DNA from: Lysobacterales bacterium
GTDB taxonomy: Bacteria > Pseudomonadota > Gammaproteobacteria > Xanthomonadales > SZUA-5
DNA: 64,000 bases
Assembly: GCA_022844165.1 (NCBI GenBank)
Contig: JALHMH010000002.1
Location: 160,001 to 224,000, forward strand
Direction of reading: 5' to 3'
The position numbers and the translations under genes were made by a program. Below the pieces are notes generated by a model. The model was given only the letters and a program-made list of their open reading frames with translations, ran no database searches and was not told the origin of the DNA. Positions 175-54,201 of the stretch are shown one piece after another; the first letter of the stretch is position 1; each line of letters starts with the position of its first letter.

Positions 175-1167
175 TTACTGCACGTTCAGATCCGTGCGGC
201 GATTGCGCGCACGGCCTTCGGCGGTGTCGTTGGTGTCGATCGGACGCGATTCGCCGTAGCCGTTGACCGCCGAAATCTTGGCGTCAGAGACGCCTTTGCC
301 GGTCAGATACTCGGCGACCACTTTGGCGCGGCATTCGGACAGACGCTGGTTGTAGGCGTCGGTTCCGACCGAATCGGTGTGACCGGCCACTTCCACGCGA
401 ATCGCGTTGCCGTTCAGTACGCGCACCGCTTCGTCAAGGATCGCGATCGCGTCGGAACGCAACGTGCACTTGTCGAAGTCGAAGTTCACGCCGTTCAGCG
501 TGATCGATACCGGCAGCTGTGCCGGCGGTTCTTCCGGCGGCGGCGGCGGGGGCGGCGGCGGTGGCGGCGGTGGCGGGGCCGGCGGCGGCGGAGGATCGGC
601 TGCGATACCGCCGAAGTAATGCGAGAAGCCGACCGTCAACGTGGTATCCCAGAACTCAAGATTGTCGTCGAGATCGGTGTACTTCTTGGCGATTTCCAAT
701 CGTACGGCGCCACTGTCGGTCACGTCCCATTCGATACCGGCAATCGGACCGATCGACGTGCCGCTTTCATCGATATCGAAACGACTGTTGCCGGCGAAGT
801 CGCCTTCGGCGTCGGCATAACCTGCGGCAATGCCGAGGTACGGATGTACCGCCGTCTCGGTATCGAACAGATAGCGCAGCGCCACCGAGATGGTGGTTTG
901 CTTCCAGTTGTAGAAGTCGAATTCGTTGACATCGTCCTCGAATTCGTTATGCGCCACTTCGCCTTCGATGGTCCAGTTGTCCTTGAACACATATCCAGCG
1001 CCGAGCGCCACGGCCAGGCCATCTTCCGAATTGCGTTCGCCGTCCGGCTTACCGAAGCCGACTTTTGGCGATACGTACCACTGTCCTGCCTCTCGCGGCG
1101 CCGCGGAGGCGCTGAGTGGAAGGGCAACGGCTACCGCGAGTGCGGTCACAAGTAGCGTCTTCTTCAT
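175..1167 (-). CDS. OmpA-family outer membrane protein (beta-barrel + poly-Pro linker + OmpA C-terminal domain)
   Basis: Signal peptide MKKTLLVTALAVAVALPLSASA after an AAGGAG RBS; NFDFDK, GHTDSVG..YNQRLSECRA and GRARNRR motifs. Confidence 0.93.
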   Translation of the reverse strand: MKKTLLVTALAVAVALPLSASAAPREAGQWYVSPKVGFGKPDGERNSEDGLAVALGAGYVFKDNWTIEGEVAHNEFEDDVNEFDFYNWKQTTISVALRYLFDTETAVHPYLGIAAGYADAEGDFAGNSRFDIDESGTSIGPIAGIEWDVTDSGAVRLEIAKKYTDLDDNLEFWDTTLTVGFSHYFGGIAADPPPPPAPPPPPPPPPPPPPPEEPPAQLPVSITLNGVNFDFDKCTLRSDAIAILDEAVRVLNGNAIRVEVAGHTDSVGTDAYNQRLSECRAKVVAEYLTGKGVSDAKISAVNGYGESRPIDTNDTAEGRARNRRTDLNVQ

Positions 1168-4740: not shown

Positions 4741-6432
4741 ATGATGATTGTGCATAACCGTTGGATCAAACTCTGCGCCCTGGCCGCATTCGTGCTGGCG
4801 GGGCTCGGCGCCTGTGCGCCGACGCCACAGACCCTCGTTGAACCATCGTCGATGCGCGAGATCGTCGGCACCAACGAGCCGTTCGCCAGCGAGAACGTCT
4901 ACTTCGTTTTGACCGACCGGTTCGTCAATGGCGATCACCGCAACGATCAGCGCGATCAGGGTGGTCCGAATCGCACGTTCGATCGACCCACACCCGGTGC
5001 GCCGCCCGGCAAGACCGATAACATTGGCTATCTGGGCGGCGATTTCAAAGGGCTGCTCGATAACGCCGACTACATCGCCGAGATGGGCTTTACGGCCGTC
5101 TGGTTGACGCCGGTCGTCGATAATCCTGATGAGGCCTTTACTGGTGGCGATCCTGCGCGTTGGGACACCAGCATGTCGGACCGTGGCAAAACCGGTTATC
5201 ACGGCTATTGGGGCGTCAACTTCTACAAGCTCGATGAACATTTGCCGAGTGCCGGCCTGGGCTTCGCCGAACTCACCGCCGGGCTCAAACAAAAGGGCCT
5301 GAAGACGGTGCTGGACGTGGTCGCCAACCATGGCTCACCGTCGTTCACGATGCCGGTCGATCAAGCGAAATATGGCGAGCTGTATGACAAAGACAATCGA
5401 CTGATCGCGGATCACCAGAACCTGCCGCCAGAGGAATTGCGGCCCGATGCCAACCCTTTGCATCGCTTCTATCGAGCCGAAAGAGATCTAGTGCAGCTGT
5501 CGAACCTGGACGACCGTCGGCCCGAGGTGATGGAGTACCTGGTGGGCGCCTATACGCAGTGGCTGGACCAGGGCGCAGACGCGTTGCGGCTGGACACCAT
5601 CGGCCATATGCCGCACACGTTCTGGGCGGAGTTTGCGCGGCGCATGCGTGCCCATCGGCCGGGCATCTTCTTGTTCGGCGAACGCTTTGCGTATGAGCCT
5701 GAAAAGATCGCTGAGCACACGTTGGTCGAAAACGGCGCTTTGAGTGTGCTCGATTTCCCGCTGAAAAAAGCCATGGGCGAGGTGTTCGAGAACCCGGACA
5801 GCGACTATCGCCAGATCGAGGTGGCGCTGTTTCTGAAAGGCGGCCCGTATCGCAACGTGTACGAGTTGACGACGTTCTACGATAACCACGATATGCCGCG
5901 CTTGAATGCCAGCGACGAAGGCTTTATCGATGCCAATCACCTGCTGTTTACAGTGCGCGGAATCCCGGTCGTCTACTACGGATCGGAGTCCGGATTCATG
6001 CGTGGTACGCAAGAGCATCAAGGCAACCGCAACTACTTCGGCAGCGAAGGCATCGCGGGCGCCCGGCAAAGTCTGGTCCGCGAGAAGCTGATGCGCATTG
6101 CCAAAGTGCGGCGCGATACGCCGGCTTTGCAGCGCGGCGTGCAGGTGAACATCGAATTCAACGGGCACCGCGCGGCGTTTTATCGCGTGTACCAGCAAAA
6201 TGGTGTCGCGCAAACCGCGCTGGTATTGCTGAACAAGGGCAACGCGCCAGAGCGCTTTGCGATCGGTGCGATGGCGCAAAAGGGACGCTGGAGAAGCGCG
6301 ATTGATGGTCGCGAGCGACAGATCGATGGCCCGGTGGAACTCACGGTCGGCCCACATGATGTTGAGGTGTTGCTACGGAATGCACCGATCACATCGCCTG
6401 CTTTGCTCGAAGCGCTGGAAGGCGATGGGTAA
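4741..6432 (+). CDS. GH13 alpha-amylase/CGTase-like lipoprotein
   Basis: Lipobox-like LGAC; TDRF, GGDFKG, YHGYW, catalytic RLDT / FGE / DNHD. Confidence 0.9.
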   Translation: MMIVHNRWIKLCALAAFVLAGLGACAPTPQTLVEPSSMREIVGTNEPFASENVYFVLTDRFVNGDHRNDQRDQGGPNRTFDRPTPGAPPGKTDNIGYLGGDFKGLLDNADYIAEMGFTAVWLTPVVDNPDEAFTGGDPARWDTSMSDRGKTGYHGYWGVNFYKLDEHLPSAGLGFAELTAGLKQKGLKTVLDVVANHGSPSFTMPVDQAKYGELYDKDNRLIADHQNLPPEELRPDANPLHRFYRAERDLVQLSNLDDRRPEVMEYLVGAYTQWLDQGADALRLDTIGHMPHTFWAEFARRMRAHRPGIFLFGERFAYEPEKIAEHTLVENGALSVLDFPLKKAMGEVFENPDSDYRQIEVALFLKGGPYRNVYELTTFYDNHDMPRLNASDEGFIDANHLLFTVRGIPVVYYGSESGFMRGTQEHQGNRNYFGSEGIAGARQSLVREKLMRIAKVRRDTPALQRGVQVNIEFNGHRAAFYRVYQQNGVAQTALVLLNKGNAPERFAIGAMAQKGRWRSAIDGRERQIDGPVELTVGPHDVEVLLRNAPITSPALLEALEGDG

Positions 6433-6447
6433 TTTGATACCACCCAC

Positions 6448-7089
6448 CTACCGCCCCGGCTGGTTGCCCCACAGCACTTTGTGCAGCTGCATCTGAAAAC
6501 GCACTGGCAGGCGATCGGCGACGATCCAGTCGGCCAGCTGTGCAGCAGCGAGGGTCTCGGTGACCGGCGAGAACAGCACGGTGCAGCGTTCCGCCAGTGC
6601 GCGCGAACGGACCATGCTGACGGACCAATCGTAATCGGCACGGTCGGCGATCACGAATTTGAGCTGATCGCCGGGCGCGAGCAACGCGATGTTTTCCAGA
6701 TGGTTCCGCGCCACTTCGCCGGAGCCCGGACACTTGATGTCGACAACTTTGCTGACGCGCGGATCGACGGCTGATACGTCGAGCGCGCCCGAGGTTTCCA
6801 GAGACACCGCATAACCTCGATCGCATAAGGCCGCCAGCAGCGGTATACAAGCGCGCTGCGCGAGCGGTTCGCCGCCGGTGACGCAGACGTGGCGCACGCC
6901 GAATGCATCCACGCGCGCTACGACATCATCCAAATCGATTTTTTCGCCGCCGGTGAAGGAGTAGTTCGTGTCGCACCAAACGCAGCGCAGCGGGCAGCCG
7001 GTGAGGCGTATGAACACCGTCGGCCAGCCGATGGCATTCGCCTCTCCCTGGATCGACAGGAAAATTTCGGTCAGGCGCAGAGTGGTCAT
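6448..7089 (-). CDS. queE: 7-carboxy-7-deazaguanine synthase QueE
   Basis: EIFLSIQGE, radical-SAM CPLRCVWCD, TGGEP, QLHKVLW; usual position after cpoB. Confidence 0.95.
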   Translation of the reverse strand: MTTLRLTEIFLSIQGEANAIGWPTVFIRLTGCPLRCVWCDTNYSFTGGEKIDLDDVVARVDAFGVRHVCVTGGEPLAQRACIPLLAALCDRGYAVSLETSGALDVSAVDPRVSKVVDIKCPGSGEVARNHLENIALLAPGDQLKFVIADRADYDWSVSMVRSRALAERCTVLFSPVTETLAAAQLADWIVADRLPVRFQMQLHKVLWGNQPGR

Positions 7090-7200
7090 TCGAATGGCGG
7101 TACCAAGCGACCGGTGAGTCCCGCCAATCGGCAGCCGGGGCGACGGCATGAAGGCGATGCGCGGCGCAAAACCATGCGCATCGCCGTTGCACGGCAGAAA

Positions 7201-8076
7201 CTACTGACCATCAAGTCGCAACGCGCGCAAACGTCCCTGTGCCAACCGCGCCACCGGCGTATCCGGATAACGATCGATGACTTCGTTCAAGGTGCGCGCG
7301 GCGCGCGTTGGATCGCCCAATTCGTATTGGCAATAACCGACTTTGAGCAAAGCATCCGGTGCCTTGCGACTGTCCGGGAACCGACTCAGCAGCGTTTGGA
7401 AAGTCTCCAGGGCGATTTCGTAGTTCTGCGTGACGTAATAGGATTCGCCGAGCCAGTAGGTCGCGTTGCCGGCGAATTCGCCATTCGGGAACTGTTGCAC
7501 AAAACCGGAAAACAGCTCCGAGGATTCGGCATAGCGTCCCTGCTTTAACGCTTCGAACGCAGCCTCGTAGGCGATCTTTTCGTCGGCACTGGCGATGGGG
7601 CCGGCGACGCCGCCGCCGACTGTCTCAGCGCCCGCAGGCGGGATTCGGGTGATTTGCGTTTCCGGCGCCGAGAGCACTGGCTCATCGTTGCCCAGCTGAT
7701 TTGGCGCTGGTGTTTCGATGGGTGCGCTCGCGACGGGTCTGGAAGGCACCGTCACACCGCCACCTTCGATCCGCTGCAACCGGGAATCGAGGTCGAGATA
7801 CTGGTTCTTCAATTGCTTTTGCAGGTTCTGGATTTCGAAAGCCTGACTCTCGACCAAACCGCGCAAATTCTGAACCTCAGCTTGAAGCTCTTGATTGCGC
7901 ATCGTTAGTTCGGCCATTGAGCCGCCCTGACTGTTGCCCTGCGCCATTCGCTCCAGCTGTTCGACGCGTTCGGCGAGGCTCAATCGGCCTTGGGAAAATG
8001 CGGATCCCGAAAACAATACGGCGGCCAACAGGGCCGCCGTCAGGGATCGATGCTTGATGCTGCGTGCGTCGATCAT
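7201..8076 (-). CDS. cpoB: Tol-Pal system protein CpoB/YbgF
   Basis: Signal peptide, coiled coil, TPRs (YWLGESYY, PDALLKVG); follows pal. Confidence 0.93.
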   Translation of the reverse strand: MIDARSIKHRSLTAALLAAVLFSGSAFSQGRLSLAERVEQLERMAQGNSQGGSMAELTMRNQELQAEVQNLRGLVESQAFEIQNLQKQLKNQYLDLDSRLQRIEGGGVTVPSRPVASAPIETPAPNQLGNDEPVLSAPETQITRIPPAGAETVGGGVAGPIASADEKIAYEAAFEALKQGRYAESSELFSGFVQQFPNGEFAGNATYWLGESYYVTQNYEIALETFQTLLSRFPDSRKAPDALLKVGYCQYELGDPTRAARTLNEVIDRYPDTPVARLAQGRLRALRLDGQ

Positions 8077-12539: not shown

Positions 12540-13582
12540 GCGTCTTGCTCGCTGGAAAACAAATCCGGCAACGGGTCGGGCTTCTTCGGCGCCTTAAGGC
12601 CGAGATGCTGATAGGCCTTGTTGGTGACCACGCGACCTCGAGCCGTTCGCATCAAATAGCCCTGCTGGATCAAAAACGGTTCGACCACATCTTCGATGGT
12701 GCCACGTTCTTCGCTCAATGCGGCTGCCATGCTGTCGACACCCACCGGACCGCCATCGAAGTGTTCGATCATCAAGCTCAACAGACGTCGATCGAGCGCG
12801 TCGAAGCCGGCTGGATCGACTTTCAGCATGTCCATCGCCGCCGATGCTGCCGCCAGATCGATCACGCCCTGACCTTTGATTTCGGCGAAGTCGCGTGCGC
12901 GCCGCAACAGCCGGTTGGCGATGCGCGGTGTGCCGCGCGAGCGCCTTGCGATTTCCACAGCGCCCAGATGTTCGCACGGAATGGCCAGAATGTTCGCCGA
13001 GCGGCTCACGATATGCGTTAACTCTTCCACCGTGTAGAACTCCAGGCGTTGCACGATGCCAAATCGATCGCGCAGTGGCGCCGTGAGCAGGCCGGCGCGG
13101 GTCGTCGCGCCGATCAGGGTAAATGGCGGCAGATCGAGTTTGATCGAACGCGCTGCCGGACCATCGCCGATCATGATGTCGATCTGGAAGTCTTCCATGG
13201 CCGGATACAGCACTTCTTCCACAACCGGCGACAGTCGATGGATTTCATCGACGAACAACACGTCTTTGGGCTGCAGATTCGTCAGCAGTGCTGCGAGATC
13301 ACCTGGGCGCTCCAGGACTGGCCCGGAGGTCTGACGCAGATTGACGCCCAGCTCGTTGGCGATGACATTCGATAGCGTCGTCTTGCCCAGGCCAGGCGGG
13401 CCGAAGATCAGCACATGATCGAGCGCTTCGCTGCGTCGCCGCGCCGCCTCAATGTAGATGTGCATCTGCTCCTTGACCGAAACCTGACCTAAGTATTCCG
13501 CCAGACGCCGTGGACGAATGCTCGCCTCCAGCGCTTTGTCGTCGCTGGACTCGGCCGGGGAGATCAGGCGGTTTTCGGGCAT
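12536..13582 (-). CDS. ruvB: Holliday junction branch-migration helicase RuvB
   Basis: [33 protein letters not shown]. Confidence 0.98.
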
Positions 13583-46963: not shown

Positions 46964-47953
46964 ATGACCCTGACACAACTTCGCTATCTGGTTGCGGTCG
47001 TTGATGCTGGCAACAACATCACTCAGGCGGCGACCAAGGTGCACGCCACGCAACCGGGTTTAAGCAAACAGCTCAAGCAGCTTGAGCAGTGGTTGGGATT
47101 TGAGCTCTTTGCGCGTCGCGGCAAGGCGCTCGACGGCTTGACCGAACCCGGCGCGCGCGTTGTCGAGCAGGCGCGTGCGCTGCTCGATCGTGCGGATGCG
47201 ATTCGCGATATTCGTGCCAGTTTTTCGGTCGATCAGGGCGGTGCGTTGCGGATCGCAACTACGCACACGCAGGCGCGATACGTGCTGCCAAAAGCCATCG
47301 TCGCGTTGAAGCGCTCCTGGCCGCTCCTGAATGTGCAACTGACACCGCAAGACGACGATGTCGCCATCGCCGCGCTACAGAGTGGCGCTGCGGATGTGGC
47401 GATCGTCTCGGCGCCGCATGCGCCGGCTGACTTGCTCGCTTTGCCGCTGTATCGGTGGAGCCGCCAGGCCCTGTTGACGGCGCAGCATCCGTTGGCCGAT
47501 GCGCAAATGACATTGGCGGATCTGGCACGATTTCCGCAAGTCAGTTACGCCTCCGCGCTGGGTCCTGCAGGATCGTTGCGTGTTGCGATGGAAAACGAGG
47601 GACTGCAACTGATCATTGGTATGGCGGCGAGCGACGGCGATTTGATCAAGACTTATGTTCGTGCGGGGCTTGGTGTTGGCATCATCGCGCCAATGGCGTT
47701 GACCGATGGCGACGGCGATCTGATCGCACGTTCTCTGACTGGCGTTTTGCCGGCGATGACGACATGGTTGGTGTTGCGTCCACAACAGACGCTCACGCGT
47801 GCGCTGGCCGCTCTGCTCGAACACCTGGCGCCCCATGTCGACGCCTGGGCAACGAAACAGCGATTGTTGGGCGATTCCAGCGTCGAATTGCTGAAGGGCG
47901 ACGTGCCGCACTGGCCATTGGCGCCAAAGGCACACGTTGCAGACCCCGCATAG
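46964..47953 (+). CDS. LysR-family regulator, CysB/Cbl-like
   Basis: MTLTQLRY, TQPGLSKQL, IATTHTQARYVLP, IKTYVRAGLGVGI. Confidence 0.88.
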   Translation: MTLTQLRYLVAVVDAGNNITQAATKVHATQPGLSKQLKQLEQWLGFELFARRGKALDGLTEPGARVVEQARALLDRADAIRDIRASFSVDQGGALRIATTHTQARYVLPKAIVALKRSWPLLNVQLTPQDDDVAIAALQSGAADVAIVSAPHAPADLLALPLYRWSRQALLTAQHPLADAQMTLADLARFPQVSYASALGPAGSLRVAMENEGLQLIIGMAASDGDLIKTYVRAGLGVGIIAPMALTDGDGDLIARSLTGVLPAMTTWLVLRPQQTLTRALAALLEHLAPHVDAWATKQRLLGDSSVELLKGDVPHWPLAPKAHVADPA

Positions 47954-47988
47954 CGGTACACTGCGCCATTGCCCACGGAGAACTGGCC

Positions 47989-49032
47989 ATGACCGATACT
48001 GTTCCGCCGATGGATACTGGCGACAAAATACCCGTCCCGCCCCAGCGCTCCTGGCGCTGGCGTCTGGTGGGTGTAGCAATCGGTTCGATCACGCTGCTGG
48101 TCGCAGGTTTGATGTTCTGGTGGTCGACGGAACCCGATCCGTTCAAGGTCCAGGCGAATGCTGATGCGTATGCCAAACAGCGTGGCGAACGCGTTGTTCC
48201 CGGTTATGTCAGCGTCGCAACGGCAATCCGTATTGCCAACACTTTGCTGGACAAACGCGGCGGCTATTTGTCGAACGATTTGCTGCCGCCCGGCGTGCTG
48301 ATGGACAACATCCCCGAATGGGAATTCGGCGTGCTGCAGCAGCTGCGCGATTTTTCCCTGGCATTGCGCAACGACTTCTCGCGCTCGCAAAGCCAGTCGC
48401 AGGACGACATCGATCTACGCGAAGCGCAGCCGCGATTTGCGTTTTCCAACGACCGCTGGATCTTGCCGTCGACCGAAAGCCAGTATCGGCAGGCGATCGG
48501 TCATCTGGACGGTTATTTGGCGCGTCTGGCCGACAGCGACGAGTACAACGCGCAGTTCTACGTGCGCGCGGACAATCTGGTGTCGTGGCTGACACTCGTG
48601 GAAAAACAGCTCGGTTCGCTCTCGCAACGGTTATCCGCCAGCGTGGGTCAGGTGCGAATCAACACCGATCTGGCCAATGAAGAAGCGGCGGCGCAATCCA
48701 CCCGGGCACCTGCGATCGTGGTGACCCGAACGCCCTGGCTGGAGATCGACAACGTGTTTTACGAGGCGCGGGGAACAAGTTGGGCGCTGCTGCATTTGCT
48801 CAAAGCCATCGAGCGCGATTTTCGGCCGGTGTTGGAAGACAAGAACGCCGTGATCAGCGTCAAGCAGATTATTCGCGAACTGGAAGAAGCCCAGGCCCCG
48901 GTGATGAGCCCGATGATTTTGAACGGCGGTGGTTACGGTTTTTTCGCCAATCACAGTCTGGTGATGGCCAACTATCTGTCGCGCGCAAACGCGGCCATTA
49001 TCGACTTGCGAAAGCTTCTGGAACGCGGGTAA
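47989..49032 (+). CDS. DUF2333-family membrane-anchored protein
   Basis: GGAG RBS; TM helix; KRGGYLSND, DNIPEWEFG, FSRSQSQS, IDNVFYEARG, ANHSLVMANY. Confidence 0.85.
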   Translation: MTDTVPPMDTGDKIPVPPQRSWRWRLVGVAIGSITLLVAGLMFWWSTEPDPFKVQANADAYAKQRGERVVPGYVSVATAIRIANTLLDKRGGYLSNDLLPPGVLMDNIPEWEFGVLQQLRDFSLALRNDFSRSQSQSQDDIDLREAQPRFAFSNDRWILPSTESQYRQAIGHLDGYLARLADSDEYNAQFYVRADNLVSWLTLVEKQLGSLSQRLSASVGQVRINTDLANEEAAAQSTRAPAIVVTRTPWLEIDNVFYEARGTSWALLHLLKAIERDFRPVLEDKNAVISVKQIIRELEEAQAPVMSPMILNGGGYGFFANHSLVMANYLSRANAAIIDLRKLLERG

Positions 49033-49344
49033 GCAGCCGCAGGCTGCGGTGCGAGATGCAAGCGAGCCAGTCTACTCCCTCTCGCCTTGCCGAAATCGAT
49101 CAGACATTTCTTTCGTTTACATCGGGACGCCACACTATCTGGCTGTTTAGAGGCAGCCTGCTGGCGATCAGGGATGGTTCCCTCATGGATCGAGCACGCA
49201 AGCGGTTGATCCATTGGAGAGCGAGTCCGGACATGCGCCGGACTCGCGACTTGAGAAACGCACAGGAACGTCCCAGGTCAACACTCACAACTCTCCGACT
49301 TGGCCTCAACTGCGAACCTGGCGAGCTGTTTTCGCGAAAATCTG

Positions 49345-50070
49345 TCAGCGGATCAACCAGCCAGCTGGATCAAAACTGTCTCGAACCCATGGGCCGCCTC
49401 GAACAAAGTCCCAAGGGATAGACGGGAAGAATGGCCCAGAAGGAGATACCGGCCAAGGATTGCGTGGGCGGTTAGGCGGAACTGTGCATTCAATGCAATT
49501 ACACTGACAGGACGCAACCCCGCAGAGGATCGCAGTAACATGCGCGCCGCAAGGGCAGGTCATCCGGCATCCCAAGAAACAATCTTGTCTTTGAAGAAAG
49601 CAATTGGCAGTAATAAGGACGCCAATGATAATCGGAGCAGCATGCTTATCCGTCGGCTGAACGTAGTCGTTTCCTGCCGCTTTAACAAATTCGACGATAT
49701 CCAGTTGCCCGCTCTTGCCGTTGGAAGCGACCCAGGATATGACCCCAGATCGCCCCGTCGTTTCGACAGTCATACCATCGGTCATCTCAAAACTAGATCG
49801 ATAGGGTTCGCCATGATACTTGAGCTGACTGCAGTCACTGTCACATGCCGGCGTGCTGTTGCTCAACGATTCCGACGACATCCAGGCAGAATGGCGAGTT
49901 CCGGTATCGCTCAAAACTCGCTGGGCCAATTCAATCTCATGCGGAGAATAGCGCGACTTCAAAGCGGCCAGCGAATCATCCATATTTACTTTGCACAAAT
50001 CCATTTGAGGAGTCTGAGCAAAGACCGAGCAAGCAAAAAAGCCTGCGAACAGGAACAATAACTTTTTCAT
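49345..50070 (-). CDS. Secreted protein with a 10-Cys C-terminal domain and Pro/Trp-rich tail
   Basis: AAGGA RBS; signal peptide MKKLLFLFAGFFACSVFA; CFLQRQDCFLGCRMTCPCGAHVTAILCGVASCQCNCIEC. Confidence 0.8.
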   Translation of the reverse strand: MKKLLFLFAGFFACSVFAQTPQMDLCKVNMDDSLAALKSRYSPHEIELAQRVLSDTGTRHSAWMSSESLSNSTPACDSDCSQLKYHGEPYRSSFEMTDGMTVETTGRSGVISWVASNGKSGQLDIVEFVKAAGNDYVQPTDKHAAPIIIGVLITANCFLQRQDCFLGCRMTCPCGAHVTAILCGVASCQCNCIECTVPPNRPRNPWPVSPSGPFFPSIPWDFVRGGPWVRDSFDPAGWLIR

Positions 50071-50111
50071 CGAGAATGTCCTTAGGAAGGCAAAAAAATA
50101 TCGGCAATGCG

Positions 50112-50207
50112 TTAGCTCTGCCGGGAATATGAGCAGAGTTCTGAAAGCTCCAATTTGGCCGTATCCAAGACGAACATTGCTGCGACCATCAGTTTCGATA
50201 GTTTCAT
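50112..50207 (-). CDS. Possible 31-aa ORF or truncated secreted-protein remnant
   Basis: AAGGA RBS; MKLSKLMVAAMFVLDTAKLELSELCSYSRQS. Confidence 0.35.
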   Translation of the reverse strand: MKLSKLMVAAMFVLDTAKLELSELCSYSRQS

Positions 50208-50286
50208 CGTTGATTCCTTAACTCTTACGTTTAGGGGTTGTCTCTTTCGAGACAGCAGCGCGGCGTTGCGCCGCGCTTACTCCTTA

Positions 50287-50314
50287 ATCGTAATTTGAGA
50301 GCAACTTCGATCAC
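50287..50314 (-). promoter_or_regulatory. Candidate ECF-dependent promoter, copy B
   Basis: GTGATCGA-agttgctct-CAAATTACGAT; 22/28 identical to copy A. Confidence 0.65.
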
Positions 50315-50327
50315 TGCCGCTTCGTTA

Positions 50328-50753
50328 TTACTCCTCTTGCTGCGGTCGGCACGAAATGGTGACTGTGCGGCTGCGCGTGCCGGCAGCTGCCGACGTTACC
50401 CGGCCAGTGAGTGTTCCCGAGCTTCCGTAAGAACAAATGGCCGTCTGCCTGGGCGTTGATCCATAAGCCGAAAGAAGCACGTTTGGCGACGAGGACCATC
50501 CATAAACATAGTCTTTGGATTGAGGATAAACCTCACAACTCCTGGTCGTTGGTGTGCCGCTGCACAACACGAAGACTGGCGGTATGTTGTCGCGAGGATG
50601 GCATTTGCAGGGATTGTCTCGGCTCGTCTTTACGGCGTGGAATCCTGGATCACATGGCAGGACCGGGCAGATATCGACATCGTCACCAGCGCTCGCCGTC
50701 ATAGACAGCGGCAACATGGCGAGAAGGACGCACAGGTTTCGAAGTGTTCTCAT
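50328..50753 (-). CDS. Small secreted protein with 8 Cys in the mature part
   Basis: GGAG RBS; signal peptide MRTLRNLCVLLAMLPLSMTASA; no family recognised. Confidence 0.82.
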   Translation of the reverse strand: MRTLRNLCVLLAMLPLSMTASAGDDVDICPVLPCDPGFHAVKTSRDNPCKCHPRDNIPPVFVLCSGTPTTRSCEVYPQSKDYVYGWSSSPNVLLSAYGSTPRQTAICSYGSSGTLTGRVTSAAAGTRSRTVTISCRPQQEE

Positions 50754-50783
50754 CTGTTGTTCTCCGTTGTTGGTTCTGGGTAC

Positions 50784-50811
50784 ATCGTAATTTGGCGACA
50801 AAATCGATCAC
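50784..50811 (-). promoter_or_regulatory. Candidate ECF-dependent promoter, copy A (overlaps the kinase stop codon)
   Basis: GTGATCGA-ttttgtcgc-CAAATTACGAT, ending 30 nt before the ATG at 50753. Confidence 0.65.
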
Positions 50812-53297
50812 GCTTCTGGTGCATTCGCCAACTCTCGGACCAGTTGTGTTGCCAGGTCACCAATTCGGCCACAGGCAATGCTGATGTCCGGATCGGACGG
50901 TGCGGCGCAGATGCCGGTGTGCAAAATGCGCTCGACGGTGCGGCGCTGGGCCGTCAAATTCGACCAGGCCTCTACCTTATGCCATTCCGAAGATTCGGGG
51001 ACACCCATCACCAGGAGCGCCGCGTGGTGCTCGCTTCGCGCCAGATGCAGGCTGGCCAGTAACGTTCGGGCGTAAACGGTCATTGGACGGTGTGGCCCCA
51101 AGGCTTGTACCGATCTATCCACGACGTCCTTGGCGGCGGCAATGGCTTCAACCGACTTCGCATCGATTCTCGAGAGCACGACGACCAGATTGAACTGAAG
51201 TCGGATCGTACTGATGTGGTTGGGCCCCAGCACCGCGCGGTATCTCTCAAGCGCCTCGGAGTAGTGGTGCCGAGCGTTCTCCAACCGCCCTGCGCGAATC
51301 AACGTGCCGGCGAAAGCGGAGCGAGCATCTGCGGCCACAACGCTCGAATTGCCATAGACACCTTCGAGGCGGGTCACCAGCTCATCGAACTCCGTCAGTG
51401 CACTTTCTGCGTTGCCCGACTGCGCTTCCGCCATCAGCAACCGGGTTCGCACACGAAGTTCTTTCGGATGATCTTCTGGCAGGCCGGTAAGCCACTGCGC
51501 CAGTTCGCGGAAGGCAACGGAAGACTCGTCAGGTCGCCCCGAAGTCCGGAGATTTTCTGCGTGGAAAAATCGAGCCTCGAATGCAAGGTCGTCGTTTTGG
51601 CTGCGATCGCCAAGGTCACGAATCAGGGCCTTGAGCAGTTCATCGGCGCGTTCAGAAAGACCAACGTCCATTTCGACACGCGCGGCCACCAGGCGCGATT
51701 CGATGCTCGGCGAAAACTCGAGTGCCTGCATTCGGGCGACCATCGATTGAGCGAGTTCGATATCGCCCGAACGCGCGTGCGCAATCGCACTTGTACGTAG
51801 CAGCCGAAGCTCGACTTCTGGCGAGAGCGCGGTTGCGGGCAGGGCAAGTGCGGGACCAGCCAGCGCCAGTGCCTGACTGTCCGCGGCCAGACCCGCCTCG
51901 ACCGACGCAATGATCTCCGCGAGTTCGGCAAACAGCAGCGGCTGCGTGTCTTTCAGCGCTATCACGCGGGGCGTGGCCGCATCGAGGATCGAGCGCGCGG
52001 TCACCCGGTCGCCGGTGCTTCGTGCCGGATCGGCGCCCAAAAAAGACTCGCGCAGGATCGACACCACTTCGCGGGCGCGGTCGCGCTCCAGCAGCGCGGT
52101 ATTGCGCTCGCGTTCGAGCGCGCCTGCCTGGAACCAAAGCGCGGTCACACCCACCACCAGCAGCACGCCGGCAACAGCCGTGAGCGCTACCGGCAGCCGA
52201 TGCCGGCGGACGAACAAGGCCGCACGATAGCCAACGCCGGTGCGCCGCGCCTGGATCGGGCGTTGCTGCAAGTACCGCTGCAAATCCGCCTCGAGCGCGG
52301 CGGCATTGGCAAACCGTTGCGTCGGCGTCTTGTGCAAACACATGCCAACGATCGCATCGAGATCGCCACGCAGTTGCGCGGCGAACGGCAGGCGCGAGAC
52401 ATCGCTGACCGGCGCCGGGGCGACATGCAAAATCAGCTTCTCGATCTCGGCTGCGCGCAATCCCTGGAAATCGAACGGCGCACGGCCAGCGAGCAGTTCG
52501 TAAGCCAGCACGCCCAAACCATAAACATCGCTGGCAACGCCCACGGCCTGCCCCAACCATTGTTCGGGGGCACTCACGCTCGGCGTCAGGAACCGCTCCG
52601 CGGTGCCGGTGGCGGCCGAATCGGTCAGCGATTTGGCGATGCCAAAATCCAGCAGCTTGGGTGTGCCGTCGGCTGTCACCAGCACATTCGAGGGCTTGAT
52701 ATCGCGATGGATCACCAGTCGATCGTGCGCATGCGCGACGGCATCGACGATGGCTGCCAGCAACTCGACGCGCGCGCGCAAACCCAGACGGTGGCGTTCG
52801 CAGTACTGCAACAGCGGTTCGCCATCGATCGCCTCCAAGACCACGTAGGGCGAGCCATCCGGCAGGCTCGAGGCGTCGATGAAGCGGCAGATGCCGGGAT
52901 GATCGAGTGCCGCCAGATGCCGACGTTCGGCGAGAAAACGCGACAGGAATACGCCCGACACGCGGTCGCGCCGGATGAGCTTGATCGCCACCTGCGTGCG
53001 CAACCCGTCGATATCGCGCTCGGCCAGGTACACCGTGCCCATGCCACCCTCGCCGAGGCGGCGCACGACGCGATAAGCTCCAATGTCGGTCGGATCGCCG
53101 ATCAATGCACCGAGCGCCGCCGGTGCCGCAGCATCGAGCGGGCTCGGCTGTGCATCGCGCCCGAGCAGACCGCGCACGCGTGCGGCGAGCGCCGGTTCGG
53201 TGGTTTCGATGGCCATCAGAGCGCTGGTTTGTTCTTCAGTCGGCAAGTCCACGACGTCGATGAAAATCGCCAGCGCACGTTGCTCGAAGGTGCTCAT
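50808..53297 (-). CDS. Membrane Ser/Thr protein kinase with TPR-like C-terminus (PknS-like)
   Basis: LGEGGMGTVY, VAIK, HRDIKPSN, DFGIAK, APE, SDVYGLG; TM helix; LGPNH/LGPH TPR-type repeats. Confidence 0.93.
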   Translation of the reverse strand: MSTFEQRALAIFIDVVDLPTEEQTSALMAIETTEPALAARVRGLLGRDAQPSPLDAAAPAALGALIGDPTDIGAYRVVRRLGEGGMGTVYLAERDIDGLRTQVAIKLIRRDRVSGVFLSRFLAERRHLAALDHPGICRFIDASSLPDGSPYVVLEAIDGEPLLQYCERHRLGLRARVELLAAIVDAVAHAHDRLVIHRDIKPSNVLVTADGTPKLLDFGIAKSLTDSAATGTAERFLTPSVSAPEQWLGQAVGVASDVYGLGVLAYELLAGRAPFDFQGLRAAEIEKLILHVAPAPVSDVSRLPFAAQLRGDLDAIVGMCLHKTPTQRFANAAALEADLQRYLQQRPIQARRTGVGYRAALFVRRHRLPVALTAVAGVLLVVGVTALWFQAGALERERNTALLERDRAREVVSILRESFLGADPARSTGDRVTARSILDAATPRVIALKDTQPLLFAELAEIIASVEAGLAADSQALALAGPALALPATALSPEVELRLLRTSAIAHARSGDIELAQSMVARMQALEFSPSIESRLVAARVEMDVGLSERADELLKALIRDLGDRSQNDDLAFEARFFHAENLRTSGRPDESSVAFRELAQWLTGLPEDHPKELRVRTRLLMAEAQSGNAESALTEFDELVTRLEGVYGNSSVVAADARSAFAGTLIRAGRLENARHHYSEALERYRAVLGPNHISTIRLQFNLVVVLSRIDAKSVEAIAAAKDVVDRSVQALGPHRPMTVYARTLLASLHLARSEHHAALLVMGVPESSEWHKVEAWSNLTAQRRTVERILHTGICAAPSDPDISIACGRIGDLATQLVRELANAPEA

Positions 53298-53857
53298 GCG
53301 GCCAGATATTCACCCAGCCACGCACGCGCAAAACGCCACTGCCGCCCCACGGTGGCGACCGACGACATCATCGCCTGCGCAACCTCTTCGACCGCCATGC
53401 CGGCAAAAACCCGCATCTCGACCACTTGCACGCAGCGCCGATCCACCTCGGCCAACGCGGTCAGCGCCTGATCCAGTTCCAGCCAATCGATGCCGTTGGT
53501 CAGCGCCATCGCTTCTTCGGCTGCGCCCGTCAACTCCACTTTAATCACATCGCCGCCGCGCTTTTCGCTTTTGCGCTCGCGCAAATGATCGATCAGGATG
53601 TAACGGATCACGGTCGCCGCGATCGCAAAAAAATGCTGCCGATCCTGCCAATCCACCTTCTGCTGGCGATGCAGGCGCTCGTACGCCTCATTGACCAGTT
53701 CCGTCGCCTGTAAGGTCACCGGGCCGGTAAAGCGCTGCAACTGCACACGCGCCAACGATTGCAGGGTTGGATACACCGCACGAATCAACGCCGGCTCCAC
53801 CGAGCGATCGCCGGCTTTCCAAATCGCCAACAAGCTGGTGACATCGACTTCGGTCAT
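53294..53857 (-). CDS. ECF sigma factor, EcfK/ECF43 type
   Basis: VTSLL..W..GD, TLQATELVNEAY, WQDRQHFFAIAA, KRGG, LDQAL, W.FARAWL; ATGA overlap with the kinase. Confidence 0.92.
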   Translation of the reverse strand: MTEVDVTSLLAIWKAGDRSVEPALIRAVYPTLQSLARVQLQRFTGPVTLQATELVNEAYERLHRQQKVDWQDRQHFFAIAATVIRYILIDHLRERKSEKRGGDVIKVELTGAAEEAMALTNGIDWLELDQALTALAEVDRRCVQVVEMRVFAGMAVEEVAQAMMSSVATVGRQWRFARAWLGEYLAA

Positions 53858-54201
53858 GATTGCTCCAGGCAAACGCCACATGCTCACCGGCAGACGGCCA
53901 AAGATACTGCCTGACGCTACGAACGCCCCAGGTCAGACGCCAGCATGAGCGCGAAGTTCACAATTCCCAGTACGTTCGACCGCGGCAAATCGTTGCAAAT
54001 CGAGCTGTTGCGAGCACAAGGATGACATTGCCCCTCAGGATTTGGCATTGCTTTCCGAACGCCAGCTTATCTCCGGCGATGTATGACAATCTGTCGATGC
54101 ACTTACCAAAAGCTTAAGTTTGGGTTAATTTCTCACCCCGAATCGATCTGGTCGCCGACGTGGCCCGGTTCCTGAACAACAATCTTTTGGGAGTTATGAC
54201 T

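Follow-up and report, generated by a model that had tools for sequence, protein, structure and literature searches.

A conserved Cys-rich protein gene and a duplicated promoter-like dyad beside an ECF43-type sigma factor/receptor kinase pair in a Lysobacterales genome

The window analysed here is a 64,000-nt stretch of contig JALHMH010000002.1 (positions 160,001 to 224,000; assembly GCA_022844165.1) from a Lysobacterales bacterium. It carries the genes of a sigma factor and a receptor kinase, followed by those of two Cys-rich proteins, P3 and P4, and by two copies of a promoter-like dyad (Table 1). The sigma factor and kinase ORFs (53294..53887 and 50808..53297) share a 4-nt overlap (ATGA); the first possible start of the sigma gene is GTG 53887, and ATG 53857 is the likely one. 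The upstream neighbour of the pair is a divergently oriented TonB-dependent receptor gene, and a domain search of the flanking ORFs found no anti-sigma-like domain. GC content is 0.48-0.54 over 49400-50800, against 0.59-0.69 in the flanks and 0.605 for the genome. P4 has the lowest GC3 in the region (0.533), followed by P3 (0.592), compared with 0.68-0.76 in the six other whole genes measured. The original prediction had described the sigma/kinase pair with its ATGA overlap, P3 and P4, the lack of an adjoining anti-sigma gene, AT-richer downstream DNA, a duplicated promoter-like motif and a Thr in the sigma-factor segment TLQATELV, and all of these were recovered.

Table 1. Features of the sigma factor/kinase locus, in window coordinates.
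Feature	Position	Strand	Basis
ECF43-type sigma factor gene	53294..53857	-	187 aa from ATG 53857; PF07638, TIGR02999
PknS-like receptor Ser/Thr kinase, 829 aa	50808..53297	-	Pfam domains, match to 9eed
Promoter-like dyad copy 1	50782..50811	-	Repeat D9, matrix score 29.6
P3, 141-aa predicted secreted or periplasmic protein	50328..50753	-	ORF, family profile, fold model
Promoter-like dyad copy 2	50285..50314	-	Repeat D9, matrix score 20.3
Two adjacent GC-rich hairpins	50240..50281	-	Folding vs shuffles
31-codon open frame (putative gene)	50112..50207	-	Follows dyad copy 2, ahead of P4; ribosome-binding word AAGGA
P4, 241-aa signal-peptide protein	49345..50070	-	ORF; Cys-rich block
Dispersed repeat element	49089..49268	.	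P4/DUF2333 gene junction; many copies by blastn

The sigma factor matches PF07638 (6.4e-46) and TIGR02999 (185 bits; cut-off 126). Numbered from ATG 53857, the Thr of TLQATELV is T52, and all 25 sigma factors compared from related cassettes retain the Thr of this QATE word; T52 and T110, the latter in the linker, are candidate phospho-acceptors. From its N-terminus the kinase comprises an extension, a Hanks kinase domain (Pkinase, residues 75-336), a single hydrophobic membrane span (~368-390) and, as its C-terminal part, a TPR domain of ~430 aa (TPR_12 at 657-723), which is predicted to be periplasmic and has two invariant Cys near its end. The catalytic motifs GEGGMG82, AIK104-106, HRDIKPSN197, DFG217 and APE243 are all intact. 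Among solved structures the best match was PknS(1-364) (entry 9eed, 6e-46), which spans query residues 6-343 and covers the N-terminal extension. The sigma/kinase pair itself is nothing unusual: of 24 sigma genes of this type in the genome, 19 have an accompanying kinase.

P3, read from ATG 50753, contains nine Cys and a signal-like N-terminal segment, and has no match in Pfam or NCBIfam. Across 107 family members six of the Cys are invariant (C29, C49, C64, C73, C107 and C135). The fold model, a nine-strand beta-sandwich with a pLDDT of 87.8, places an N-terminal Cys-bearing segment before an Ig/PKD-like sandwich. The family profile matches at least 35 of the 399 genomes of the order. Of the best 30 P3 loci, 25 have the C-terminal end of a co-oriented kinase immediately upstream; one locus is convergent, and three of the four misses fall at contig starts. 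Starting from the kinase, the 56 closest homologues of its periplasmic domain in the order (E <= 2.4e-16) include 39 with a P3 match just downstream, and in a set picked by sigma factor alone P3 followed 35 of 59 assessable ECF-kinase pairs, the other 24 having no recognisable P3; these linkage counts are lower bounds because 4 to 9 candidates were scored per genome, and they are not independent across kin. P3 looks like the core third gene of the cassette and a member of an unannotated ~150-aa Ig/PKD-like family with six invariant Cys, which looks new. Several of the 24 pairs listed without P3 have other secreted Cys proteins or an apparently divergent P3.

P4 also starts with a signal-like segment and has no Pfam or NCBIfam match. 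It contains 14 Cys, ten of them in residues 157-195, and family conservation is concentrated in this C-terminal block and a Pro/Trp-rich tail; the structure model (pLDDT 48.7) is too low in confidence to use. Three homologues were found among the 399 genomes searched. All three have a downstream gene of CPBP type that encodes 326-337 aa (PF02517 at 1e-17 and 1e-15; NCBIfam CPBP models at 6e-13). The window P4 lacks such a partner, and a search of the genome found no gene of this type. The dispersed repeat, located where P4 meets the conserved DUF2333 gene, gave 57 blastn matches within this genome and occurs dozens of times in a sister species (78-91% identity); it may mark the edge of a variable block. 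Homologues of the sigma/kinase pair, of both Cys-rich proteins and of the TonB receptor are all absent from the sister-species DNA examined beside DUF2333 and dnaE. The AT-rich DNA around P4 was probably acquired.

The dyad reads TGATCGA-N16-CG(A/C)GTA, its TGA often being the kinase stop codon. The window copies form a 28-nt direct repeat (D9; 50784-50811 and 50287-50314) with 79% identity. In copy 1, TGATCGA (50810-50804) contains the kinase stop and is separated by a 16-nt spacer from CGATGT (50787-50782), 29 nt ahead of the P3 start codon. Copy 2 begins 14 nt past the P3 stop codon, with TGATCGA at 50313-50307, the same spacer length and CGATTA; both -10-like words differ from the consensus CGAGTA. 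A matrix of 21 sites, all from other genomes (training scores 19.5-38.9), ranked the two copies 1 and 5 among 9,360,348 genome positions, copy 2 scoring near the bottom of the training range; rank 4 belongs to a paralogous cassette on contig C9. The genome has 5 sites scoring at least 20 (9.36 million positions), and the 80 ECF loci have 50 (1.80 million positions), an enrichment of ~50-fold. The dyad is also enriched in kinase-P3 spacers, occurring in 11 of 25 where shuffled sets reached at most 4-6. It precedes P3 in 20 of 35 ECF-kinase-P3 loci, 14 of these 20 on contigs outside training, and is missing there (score < 15) in 15; all nine Tahibacter-type loci are without it ahead of P3. In three loci a dyad also precedes the sigma gene, as expected for an autoregulated ECF promoter; the window's own sigma gene has none ahead. 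With its -35/-10 geometry, the dyad is promoter-like and conserved, and its placement before P3 and P4 would fit co-regulation of both. The conserved, duplicated dyad looks new.

Just past copy 2, the two hairpins fold at -27.2 kcal/mol (z = -4.9, with 0 of 200 shuffles as stable). They have no U tract and no canonical terminator is listed there, and they belong either to the 3' end of the P3 mRNA or to the 5' leader of a P4 mRNA. The 31-codon frame bears a weak likeness to the signal peptides of small 6-Cys peptides, 13 to 866 of 1000 shuffles reaching the score, depending on the partner. In the ECF-chosen set, such a 6-Cys family stands behind the second dyad copy at 5 of the 8 loci that have one, and glutaredoxin-domain proteins alongside 6-Cys peptides, an HlyD exporter and other secreted proteins occupy this position elsewhere. 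In other genomes most second copies lie ahead of genes for small secreted peptides rich in Cys or for export, an arrangement that looks new.

Reading these sequence features together, we hypothesize, with a probability of about 0.55, that the locus is a four-part cassette on a known switch, in which the dyad drives P3 and P4 as an exported Cys-rich output. The membrane kinase would sense a signal through its periplasmic TPR domain and, by homology with EcfK/PknS and EcfP/PknT, would phosphorylate T52 of the sigma factor, and possibly T110 as well, the phosphate supplying the negative charge that sigma-2.2 requires for RNA polymerase binding. The active sigma factor would then transcribe from the dyad as a clade-specific promoter; the motif's conservation, position and orientation suggest that copy 1 drives P3, and copy 2 the 31-codon frame and P4. 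P3 would be the cassette's conserved disulfide-bonded Ig/PKD-like envelope protein, and P4 a lineage-specific cargo, apparently derived from a P4-CPBP protease pair and moved behind the second promoter in the probably acquired DNA. The output would be exported Cys-rich protein, not a secretion machine. The locus offers a testable guess at what a common, poorly understood sigma/kinase pair controls, namely a conserved small P3 and a rare P4.

P3 may instead belong to the input side, as a periplasmic partner of the kinase TPR domain (ligand carrier, co-receptor or inhibitor) whose own promoter provides feedback, with the true outputs lying only after the second dyad. This possibility, which we hold tentatively and below the four-part cassette, is consistent with a P3 that keeps its place immediately behind the kinase in many genera, ahead of genes that vary, with the shared predicted compartment, with the protein-binding nature of TPRs and with the modelled Ig/PKD-like binding fold. 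It also fits the PknS report, in which the periplasmic domain is said to restrain autophosphorylation (PMC13147305). Related kinase pairs with no recognisable P3 speak against an input role, as does a promoter-like site of P3's own in place of simple translational coupling to the kinase. The original prediction treated P3 and P4 as two unrecognised Cys-rich, signal-peptide outputs; they do remain without a Pfam or NCBIfam match, but P3 is a conserved cassette gene rather than a free output. An effector role for both, antimicrobial, anti-predator or signalling, in a compact sense-and-secrete system appears unlikely to us: the strict conservation of P3 beside the kinase is unlike that of a variable effector, P4 is here without its CPBP partner, and neither protein matches a toxin, lysin or bacteriocin family. 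It draws on the signal-like N-termini and many Cys of both proteins, on their shared position behind a dyad, on the 6-Cys peptides, HlyD exporter and ATP-grasp-like gene that dyads precede elsewhere, and on the adjacency of P4 relatives to CPBP proteases, a family that includes bacteriocin immunity and processing proteins.

The adjacency of P4 could also be accidental, the dyad being another regulator's site or an RNA-level or termination element, P3 being expressed by read-through from the kinase, and P4 being horizontally acquired under its own control. None of the three P4 homologues lies beside an ECF-kinase pair, and no dyad occurs in the 15-kb regions around two of them. The low GC3 of P4, its contact with the dispersed repeat, the lack of these genes in the sister-species DNA examined, the P3 start only 55 nt beyond the kinase stop and the strong hairpins after copy 2 point the same way. 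Against a non-promoter stand the fixed spacer, an orientation that always faces the downstream gene, the concentration of dyads in ECF loci and their occurrence before three sigma genes. A chance copy 2 of its genome rank, so close behind P3 and facing P4, is estimated at ~1e-4 per 260-nt spacer, and we consider accident improbable. The homologue survey proposed for genes downstream of ECF-kinase pairs came out divided: P3 recurs there, but none of the three P4 homologues does, so the linkage anticipated for P4 failed. 'Sense and secrete' is a fair reading of the locus because second dyad copies in other genomes mostly precede secreted or export genes.

Among the closest known systems is EcfK/PknS of Xanthomonas citri, in which, in the available part of the report, an ECF43 sigma factor is activated by a Hanks-type receptor kinase (PMC13147305). 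The resemblance to it that had been proposed holds up in the match of the kinase to PknS and in the QATE word and its Thr, shared at the level of the word (PMC13147305). Both loci have the order sigma factor then kinase, the kinases are of similar length (829 aa in the window, 833 aa in PknS) and share an N-terminal extension, kinase domain, single membrane span and periplasmic TPRs, with moderate identity, and a Ser/Thr-or-acidic linker position corresponds to T110 here (PMC13147305). No gene for the type VI secretion sheath protein TssC was found in this 99.97%-complete genome, and the output therefore differs; the accessible text on EcfK/PknS mentions neither a conserved third gene like P3 nor a dyad overlapping the kinase stop (PMC13147305). 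EcfP/PknT of Vibrio parahaemolyticus, another ECF43 system, serves the polymyxin response (PMC8999054, available part). EcfP is described there as intrinsically inactive, without the acidic DAED word, and is phosphorylated on a sigma-2.2 Thr by the neighbouring kinase (PMC8999054, PMC13147305, in the parts available). The window pair likewise combines the lack of an acidic DAED with a sigma-2.2 Thr, a neighbouring kinase and no anti-sigma factor; EcfP has STTA without an acidic residue, whereas the window protein keeps Glu after the Thr, like EcfK, and the regulons are unrelated as far as these sources describe them (PMC8999054, PMC13147305).

Beyond the switch, P3 resembles PKD and Ig domains. 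A Foldseek search with its model gave no match at E <= 0.001; the best target-normalised TM-score was 0.74, to 6aem_A (PKD1 domain of Vibrio anguillarum Epp), and the P3 profile also picks up the repeats in giant PKD proteins of the K319L-like kind. Pfam models for PKD and Ig domains all stayed below threshold on P3 and the eight relatives scanned, and the family differs in being stand-alone and ~150 aa long, with six invariant Cys and, in addition, a Cys segment at the N-terminus. The three other P4-family genes pair with genes for Rce1-like, CAAX-type CPBP intramembrane proteases, whereas the window P4 stands behind an ECF-linked dyad instead.

The sigma factor–kinase cassette occupies the minus strand of the window and carries, downstream of an ECF43-type sigma gene and a PknS-like kinase gene, two genes for signal-peptide, Cys-rich proteins, designated here P3 and P4. 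The original prediction had described an ECF gene, a kinase gene, two such proteins, and a duplicated promoter-like motif, and all of these were recovered at the positions collected in the table. The predicted ATGA overlap of the ECF and TPR kinase genes is also present, and no anti-sigma domain was found in the neighbours of the pair (the TonB receptor and P3), as had been anticipated. The cassette is flanked on one side by a divergent TonB-dependent receptor gene and dnaE, and on the other by a convergent DUF2333 gene, a LysR gene, and a patatin gene. The downstream genes do lie in AT-richer DNA: the GC content of the P3–P4 stretch is 0.48–0.54 versus about 0.6–0.69 in the flanks, and the GC3 values of P4 (0.533) and P3 (0.592) lie below the 0.68–0.76 of the other genes (genome GC 0.605). 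A scan for sigma-70 promoters and terminators returned no site in the minus-strand intergenic spacers, and its totals did not rise above those of shuffled sequences. The dispersed repeat beyond P4 gave 57 blastn matches in this genome, and the sister species (G001) has dozens of copies that are 78–91% identical; it resembles REP or MITE elements.

Features of the sigma factor–kinase cassette and their coordinates in the window
Feature	Position	Strand	Details
Sigma factor gene	53294-53857	minus	ATG at 53857; first possible start is GTG at 53887
Kinase gene	50808-53297	minus	829 aa; 4-nt overlap with the sigma gene
Dyad copy 1	50811-50784	minus	TGA is the kinase stop codon
P3 gene	50328-50753	minus	141 aa, 9 Cys, signal-like N-terminus
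Dyad copy 2	50314-50287	minus	begins 14 nt past the P3 stop
P4 gene	49345-50070	minus	241 aa, 14 Cys, signal-like N-terminus
Dispersed repeat	49089-49268		between P4 and the DUF2333 gene; ~130-180 nt

The sigma factor and the kinase form a pair of an already known kind. The sigma factor matches Pfam Sigma70_ECF PF07638 (6.4e-46, 157 bits) and NCBIfam TIGR02999 (185 bits versus a cut-off of 126), profiles that we take to correspond to the ECF43 group. Its sigma-2.2 region reads LQATELV, with T52, and lacks the acidic DxxD/DAED word; the Thr singled out in the original prediction is this residue, and its equivalent is kept in all 25 aligned sigma factors of related cassettes. A further threonine, T110, occupies a linker position at which most relatives have Asp. 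According to the portions of the literature consulted, ECF43 proteins lack the acidic word in sigma-2.2 and carry a conserved Thr instead (consensus QTTA, QATE in EcfK; PMC13147305, PMC8999054), EcfK is a member of this group, which is marked by a Hanks kinase encoded next to the sigma factor, and PknS phosphorylates EcfK on T51 within the QATE word and on linker residues including T106 (PMC13147305). By homology, the window sigma factor is very probably switched on by kinase-driven Thr phosphorylation.

The kinase contains a Hanks domain (Pkinase match at residues 75-336, 1.2e-40) with a complete set of catalytic motifs (GEGGMG82, AIK104-106, HRDIKPSN197, DFG217, APE243), a single hydrophobic span at about 368-390 (hydrophobic window 366-394), and a TPR_12 match at residues 657-723 (1e-14). 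Because there is one such span, the ~430 C-terminal residues should face the periplasm. Two Cys near the C-terminus, at positions 400 and 412 of the segment comprising residues 398-829 (window 50811-52106), are invariant in 25 relatives, which suggests a disulfide and fits an oxidising compartment.

Pairs of this type are numerous. The PknS/EcfK paper counts 343 ECF43 representatives in Xanthomonadales (PMC13147305), and this genome alone has 24 PF07638-type sigma genes at 96 bits or more, among 31 listed matches. A Hanks-type kinase domain is encoded just downstream of 19 of the 24, out of 43 kinase-domain matches in the genome. A P3-family gene is present at only two of these sigma/kinase pairs, one in the window (contig C2) and one on contig C9. 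The C9 paralogue (~47231-50819, locus L052) encodes a sigma factor 54% and a kinase 35% identical to those of the window; it has the motif at the kinase stop codon and is followed by a second kinase gene.

Judged by its position in genomes of the same order, P3 is the conserved third gene of the cassette. Single-protein searches of the sister species found neither P3 nor P4, and the weak P3 matches from further genera of that order lie without exception directly 3' of kinase C-termini. A 7-row P3 profile run on 399 genomes of the order matched 35 of them, at 57 places, and at 25 of the 30 best loci the periplasmic domain of a kinase is encoded immediately upstream in the same orientation. The other five comprise one convergent kinase and four loci without a kinase, three of which start 15-403 nt from a contig start. 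When the search was run from the kinase side, a co-oriented P3 match was found within 2 kb downstream at 40 of the top 74 of 150 places listed, and at 39 of 56 of the closest kinase homologues (E ≤ 2.4e-16). All 25 kinase–P3 pairs are co-oriented, and the sigma gene directly precedes the kinase in 24 of them; these pairs come from 22 stretches (20 loci, the C9 paralogue, and the window) selected for both genes and so describe order, not frequency.

Frequency was assessed on loci selected through the sigma factor only, 80 in number with 92 sigma genes, titled Lysobacterales, its members, or Proteobacteria/Pseudomonadota MAGs, with Aquimonas, Tahibacter, Ahniella, Dokdonella, and Pseudomarimonas among the genera. 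A kinase lies downstream of 69/92 sigma genes, and among the 59 assessable sigma–kinase pairs a P3 match is present in 35 and absent in 24, several of the latter encoding other secreted Cys proteins or a divergent-looking P3. All P3 linkage counts are lower bounds, with 4-9 candidates scored per genome, and related genomes are not independent. One locus (L065, G139:C82:700-17200) holds three tandem sigma–kinase–P3 cassettes on one strand within 16.5 kb.

P3 itself has no Pfam or NCBIfam match. An HMMER scan of 1.84 billion representatives with the P3 profile yielded 549 proteins at E ≤ 0.001, 181 of them at E ≤ 1e-10. The 150 matches listed fall into two groups: 115 small proteins (73-206 aa), each matched over one single stretch, and 35 multi-repeat proteins (616-6,281 aa), in which the best match mostly falls within profile positions 79-143; four of these giants consist of K319L-like PKD repeats. 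An alignment of 107 small members shows six invariant cysteines (C29, C49, C64, C73, C107, and C135). AlphaFold2 modeled P3 as a 9-strand β-sandwich (pLDDT 87.8, pTM 0.74), and Foldseek returned generic Ig-like folds only, with no match at E ≤ 0.001 and a best target-normalised TM-score of 0.74 to a PKD1 domain. In this model P3 has the Ig-like β-sandwich fold of PKD domain proteins; no PKD-type Pfam model scored above threshold for P3 or the eight relatives scanned, for which the sole Pfam hint was Ig_2 (E = 0.094). A word-seeded protein search with P3 returned nothing, and with the 107-row profile it returned eight matches, all unnamed or annotated as "hypothetical protein". On the basis of Cys conservation, fold, and the unnamed status of its members, P3 represents a family of disulfide-rich, Ig/PKD-like envelope proteins that had not been annotated.

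The duplicated promoter-like motif reported in the original prediction corresponds to the direct repeat D9, which on the minus strand reads GTGATCGA, 16 nt, CGAT. In a blind dyad count, TGATCGA-N16-17-CGAGT was found in 11 of 25 kinase–P3 spacers versus a shuffled maximum of 4-6; the aligned instances share TGATCGA, a T-rich spacer start, and CGAGTA, with CGCGTA variants also seen. A matrix built from 21 sites of other genomes, with the window excluded, ranked copy 1 first (score 29.6) and copy 2 fifth (20.3) in a scan of the whole genome. The intervening ranks were taken by a site on contig C6 that lacks a convincing downstream gene (23.0), a site on contig C54 (21.9), and the C9 paralogous cassette, at its kinase stop (20.6). 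Sites scoring at least 20 numbered 5 in 9.36 million genome positions versus 50 in the 80 sigma-chosen loci, which span 1.80 million positions. In the latter set, the motif (score ≥ 15) precedes P3 in 20 of 35 sigma–kinase–P3 loci, 14 of these 20 being on contigs outside the matrix training, and in 14 loci the kinase gene ends with the TGA of the motif. It is absent at this score before P3 in nine Tahibacter-type loci (L103, L104, L105, L107, L110, L111, L116, L118, and L119). At L100, L102, and L109, three loci whose titles name Aquimonas, Pseudomarimonas, and Pseudoxanthomonas, the motif also occurs ~90 nt before the sigma gene, at about position 6340. The gene after the kinase at these three loci encodes another secreted Cys protein of ~250 aa, not P3.

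Its geometry and orientation, its enrichment, and the autoregulatory position seen at some loci lead us to regard the dyad as the likely promoter for this subclade of sigma factors, with a probability of roughly 65%. Transcription of P3 from copy 1 is also favoured, slightly less strongly, and for transcription of P4 from copy 2 we regard the odds as even. A classic ECF-looking word, GAAC-N16-CGTC (53958-53935, minus strand), is located ~80 nt upstream of the sigma gene ATG; it was rejected as a shared sigma-gene promoter, a looser pattern being absent upstream of 24 related sigma genes with the exception of one weak match.

The genes behind second dyad copies indicate what this promoter may control. 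After P3 in other genomes, the second copy precedes genes for six-Cys precursors, each ~65 aa long and with a signal peptide, identified by profile at five of eight second-copy loci of the sigma-chosen set (L091, L092, L094, L133, and L144). The 6-Cys peptide gene is often followed by one for a membrane-anchored glutaredoxin-domain protein (PF00462); another second-copy gene encodes an HlyD-family secretion protein (PF13437, 1.8e-17), and others encode other secreted proteins. An ATP-grasp-like gene stands behind a second copy in two genera, and its weak MvdD pre-ATP-grasp match (E = 0.0012, below threshold) hints at peptide-modifying cargo. These ATP-grasp-like genes (L098 ~6319; L059/L093) encode ~385-392 aa and are divergently transcribed, with the motif facing them. 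The C54 site is unlinked to any sigma/kinase cassette. This site (~13080-13361; L080 ~6604-7362) precedes a ~63-aa six-Cys precursor and then a membrane-anchored glutaredoxin-domain protein. In the window, a 31-codon frame between dyad copy 2 and P4 was considered as a decayed 6-Cys peptide gene, but the likeness was not significant, its score being matched by 13 to 866 of 1000 shuffles, depending on the partner.

P4 has a different distribution. It has no Pfam or NCBIfam match, a word-seeded protein search returned only P4 itself, its best score in the protein atlas was an uninformative 0.76, and its model, based on an alignment of only four sequences, reached a pLDDT of 48.7, which is unusable for fold comparison. 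Only 4 of the 399 genomes matched the P4 profile, the present one being among them. The three relatives (L077 in G050, L078 in G066, and L079 in G312) share a C-terminal 10-Cys block with a Pro/Trp tail, and each is followed immediately by a gene for a CPBP/Rce1-like membrane protease of 326-337 aa; the P4 relative and the CPBP gene make up a small, rare two-gene cassette. In the window, unlike in the relatives, P4 is followed by a 313-nt spacer with the repeat element and then by the convergent DUF2333 gene, and tblastn with the G050 CPBP protein found nothing in this genome. Neither ECF, kinase, or P3 homologues nor motifs scoring at least 15 were found in the three P4-relative regions (two of 15 kb and one 3.7-kb contig). 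The sister-species DNA adjoining DUF2333 (6.9 kb, up to the contig end) and the 10 kb before dnaE yielded no homologue of P4, P3, the sigma factor, the kinase, or the TonB receptor. Because P4 is rare, has CPBP-paired relatives without ECF linkage, adjoins a repeat, and is absent from the sister-species DNA compared, it has the appearance of a cargo gene that was acquired and came to lie behind the second dyad.

The original prediction read the locus as a compact sense-and-secrete system whose output is disulfide-rich exported proteins, with homologues of both downstream genes expected beside related ECF–kinase pairs. This reading is supported in part. An exported Cys-rich regulon is predicted, and the survey of related pairs upheld the linkage for P3; for P4, the same expectation failed in the regions of all three relatives. 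P3 is a candidate for either of two roles, an output of the sigma factor or a periplasmic partner of the TPR sensor. The second role can be extended to an autoinduction circuit, in which the TPR domain and P3 as co-receptor would sense the Cys-rich exports that the sigma factor drives. The sensed product would be P4 here and, in relatives, the 6-Cys peptides with their dedicated glutaredoxin or HlyD exporter. We consider this circuit improbable; if true, the Hanks kinase/ECF sigma pair would serve Gram-negative bacteria as a switch for quorum or kin sensing and for the release of bacteriocins, a new kind of circuit.

To our knowledge, the output is known for only two kinase-activated ECF43 systems, and the signal for none. 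The elements that appear new here, as derived from genome comparison, are the conserved P3 family, the promoter word embedded in a stop codon, and the predicted exported Cys-rich regulon. Together, the third gene, the clade-specific promoter word, and the genes behind it amount to a concrete predicted regulon, and P3 to a candidate periplasmic partner for one large ECF43 subclade; P3 and the small 6-Cys peptides are also two previously unannotated protein families. The genome of the window was assembled from a metagenome. The same cassette is carried by cultured strains, Dokdonella immobilis (L150) and Pseudomarimonas arenosa (L098), so the regulon prediction is directly testable. A conserved third gene or promoter word was not found in the excerpts of the ECF43 cassette literature consulted; the original EcfP and EcfK regulon papers may describe them.

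The closest known system is EcfK/PknS, one of the two pairs named in the original prediction. It differs in its output: no match to TssC (PF05943) was found in this 99.97%-complete genome, so the type VI secretion controlled by EcfK is not applicable to the window pair, and the expectation of an output other than a secretion machine holds as far as type VI is concerned. PknS is described as a receptor kinase of 833 aa that combines an N-terminal extension with one membrane span and TPRs in the periplasm, the signal of its periplasmic domain still to be found (PMC13147305). The best solved relative of the window kinase is PknS(1-364) (entry 9eed, 6e-46), aligned over query residues 6-343 and chain residues 10-363. 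Generic PknB-type matches start only at residue 72-75; because the alignment with PknS begins at residue 6, the N-terminal extension is common to both kinases. The window kinase therefore resembles PknS in its N-terminal extension, Hanks domain, single membrane span, and putatively periplasmic TPR domain, and the two sigma factors share the QATE word, with T52 here in the place of T51 of EcfK.
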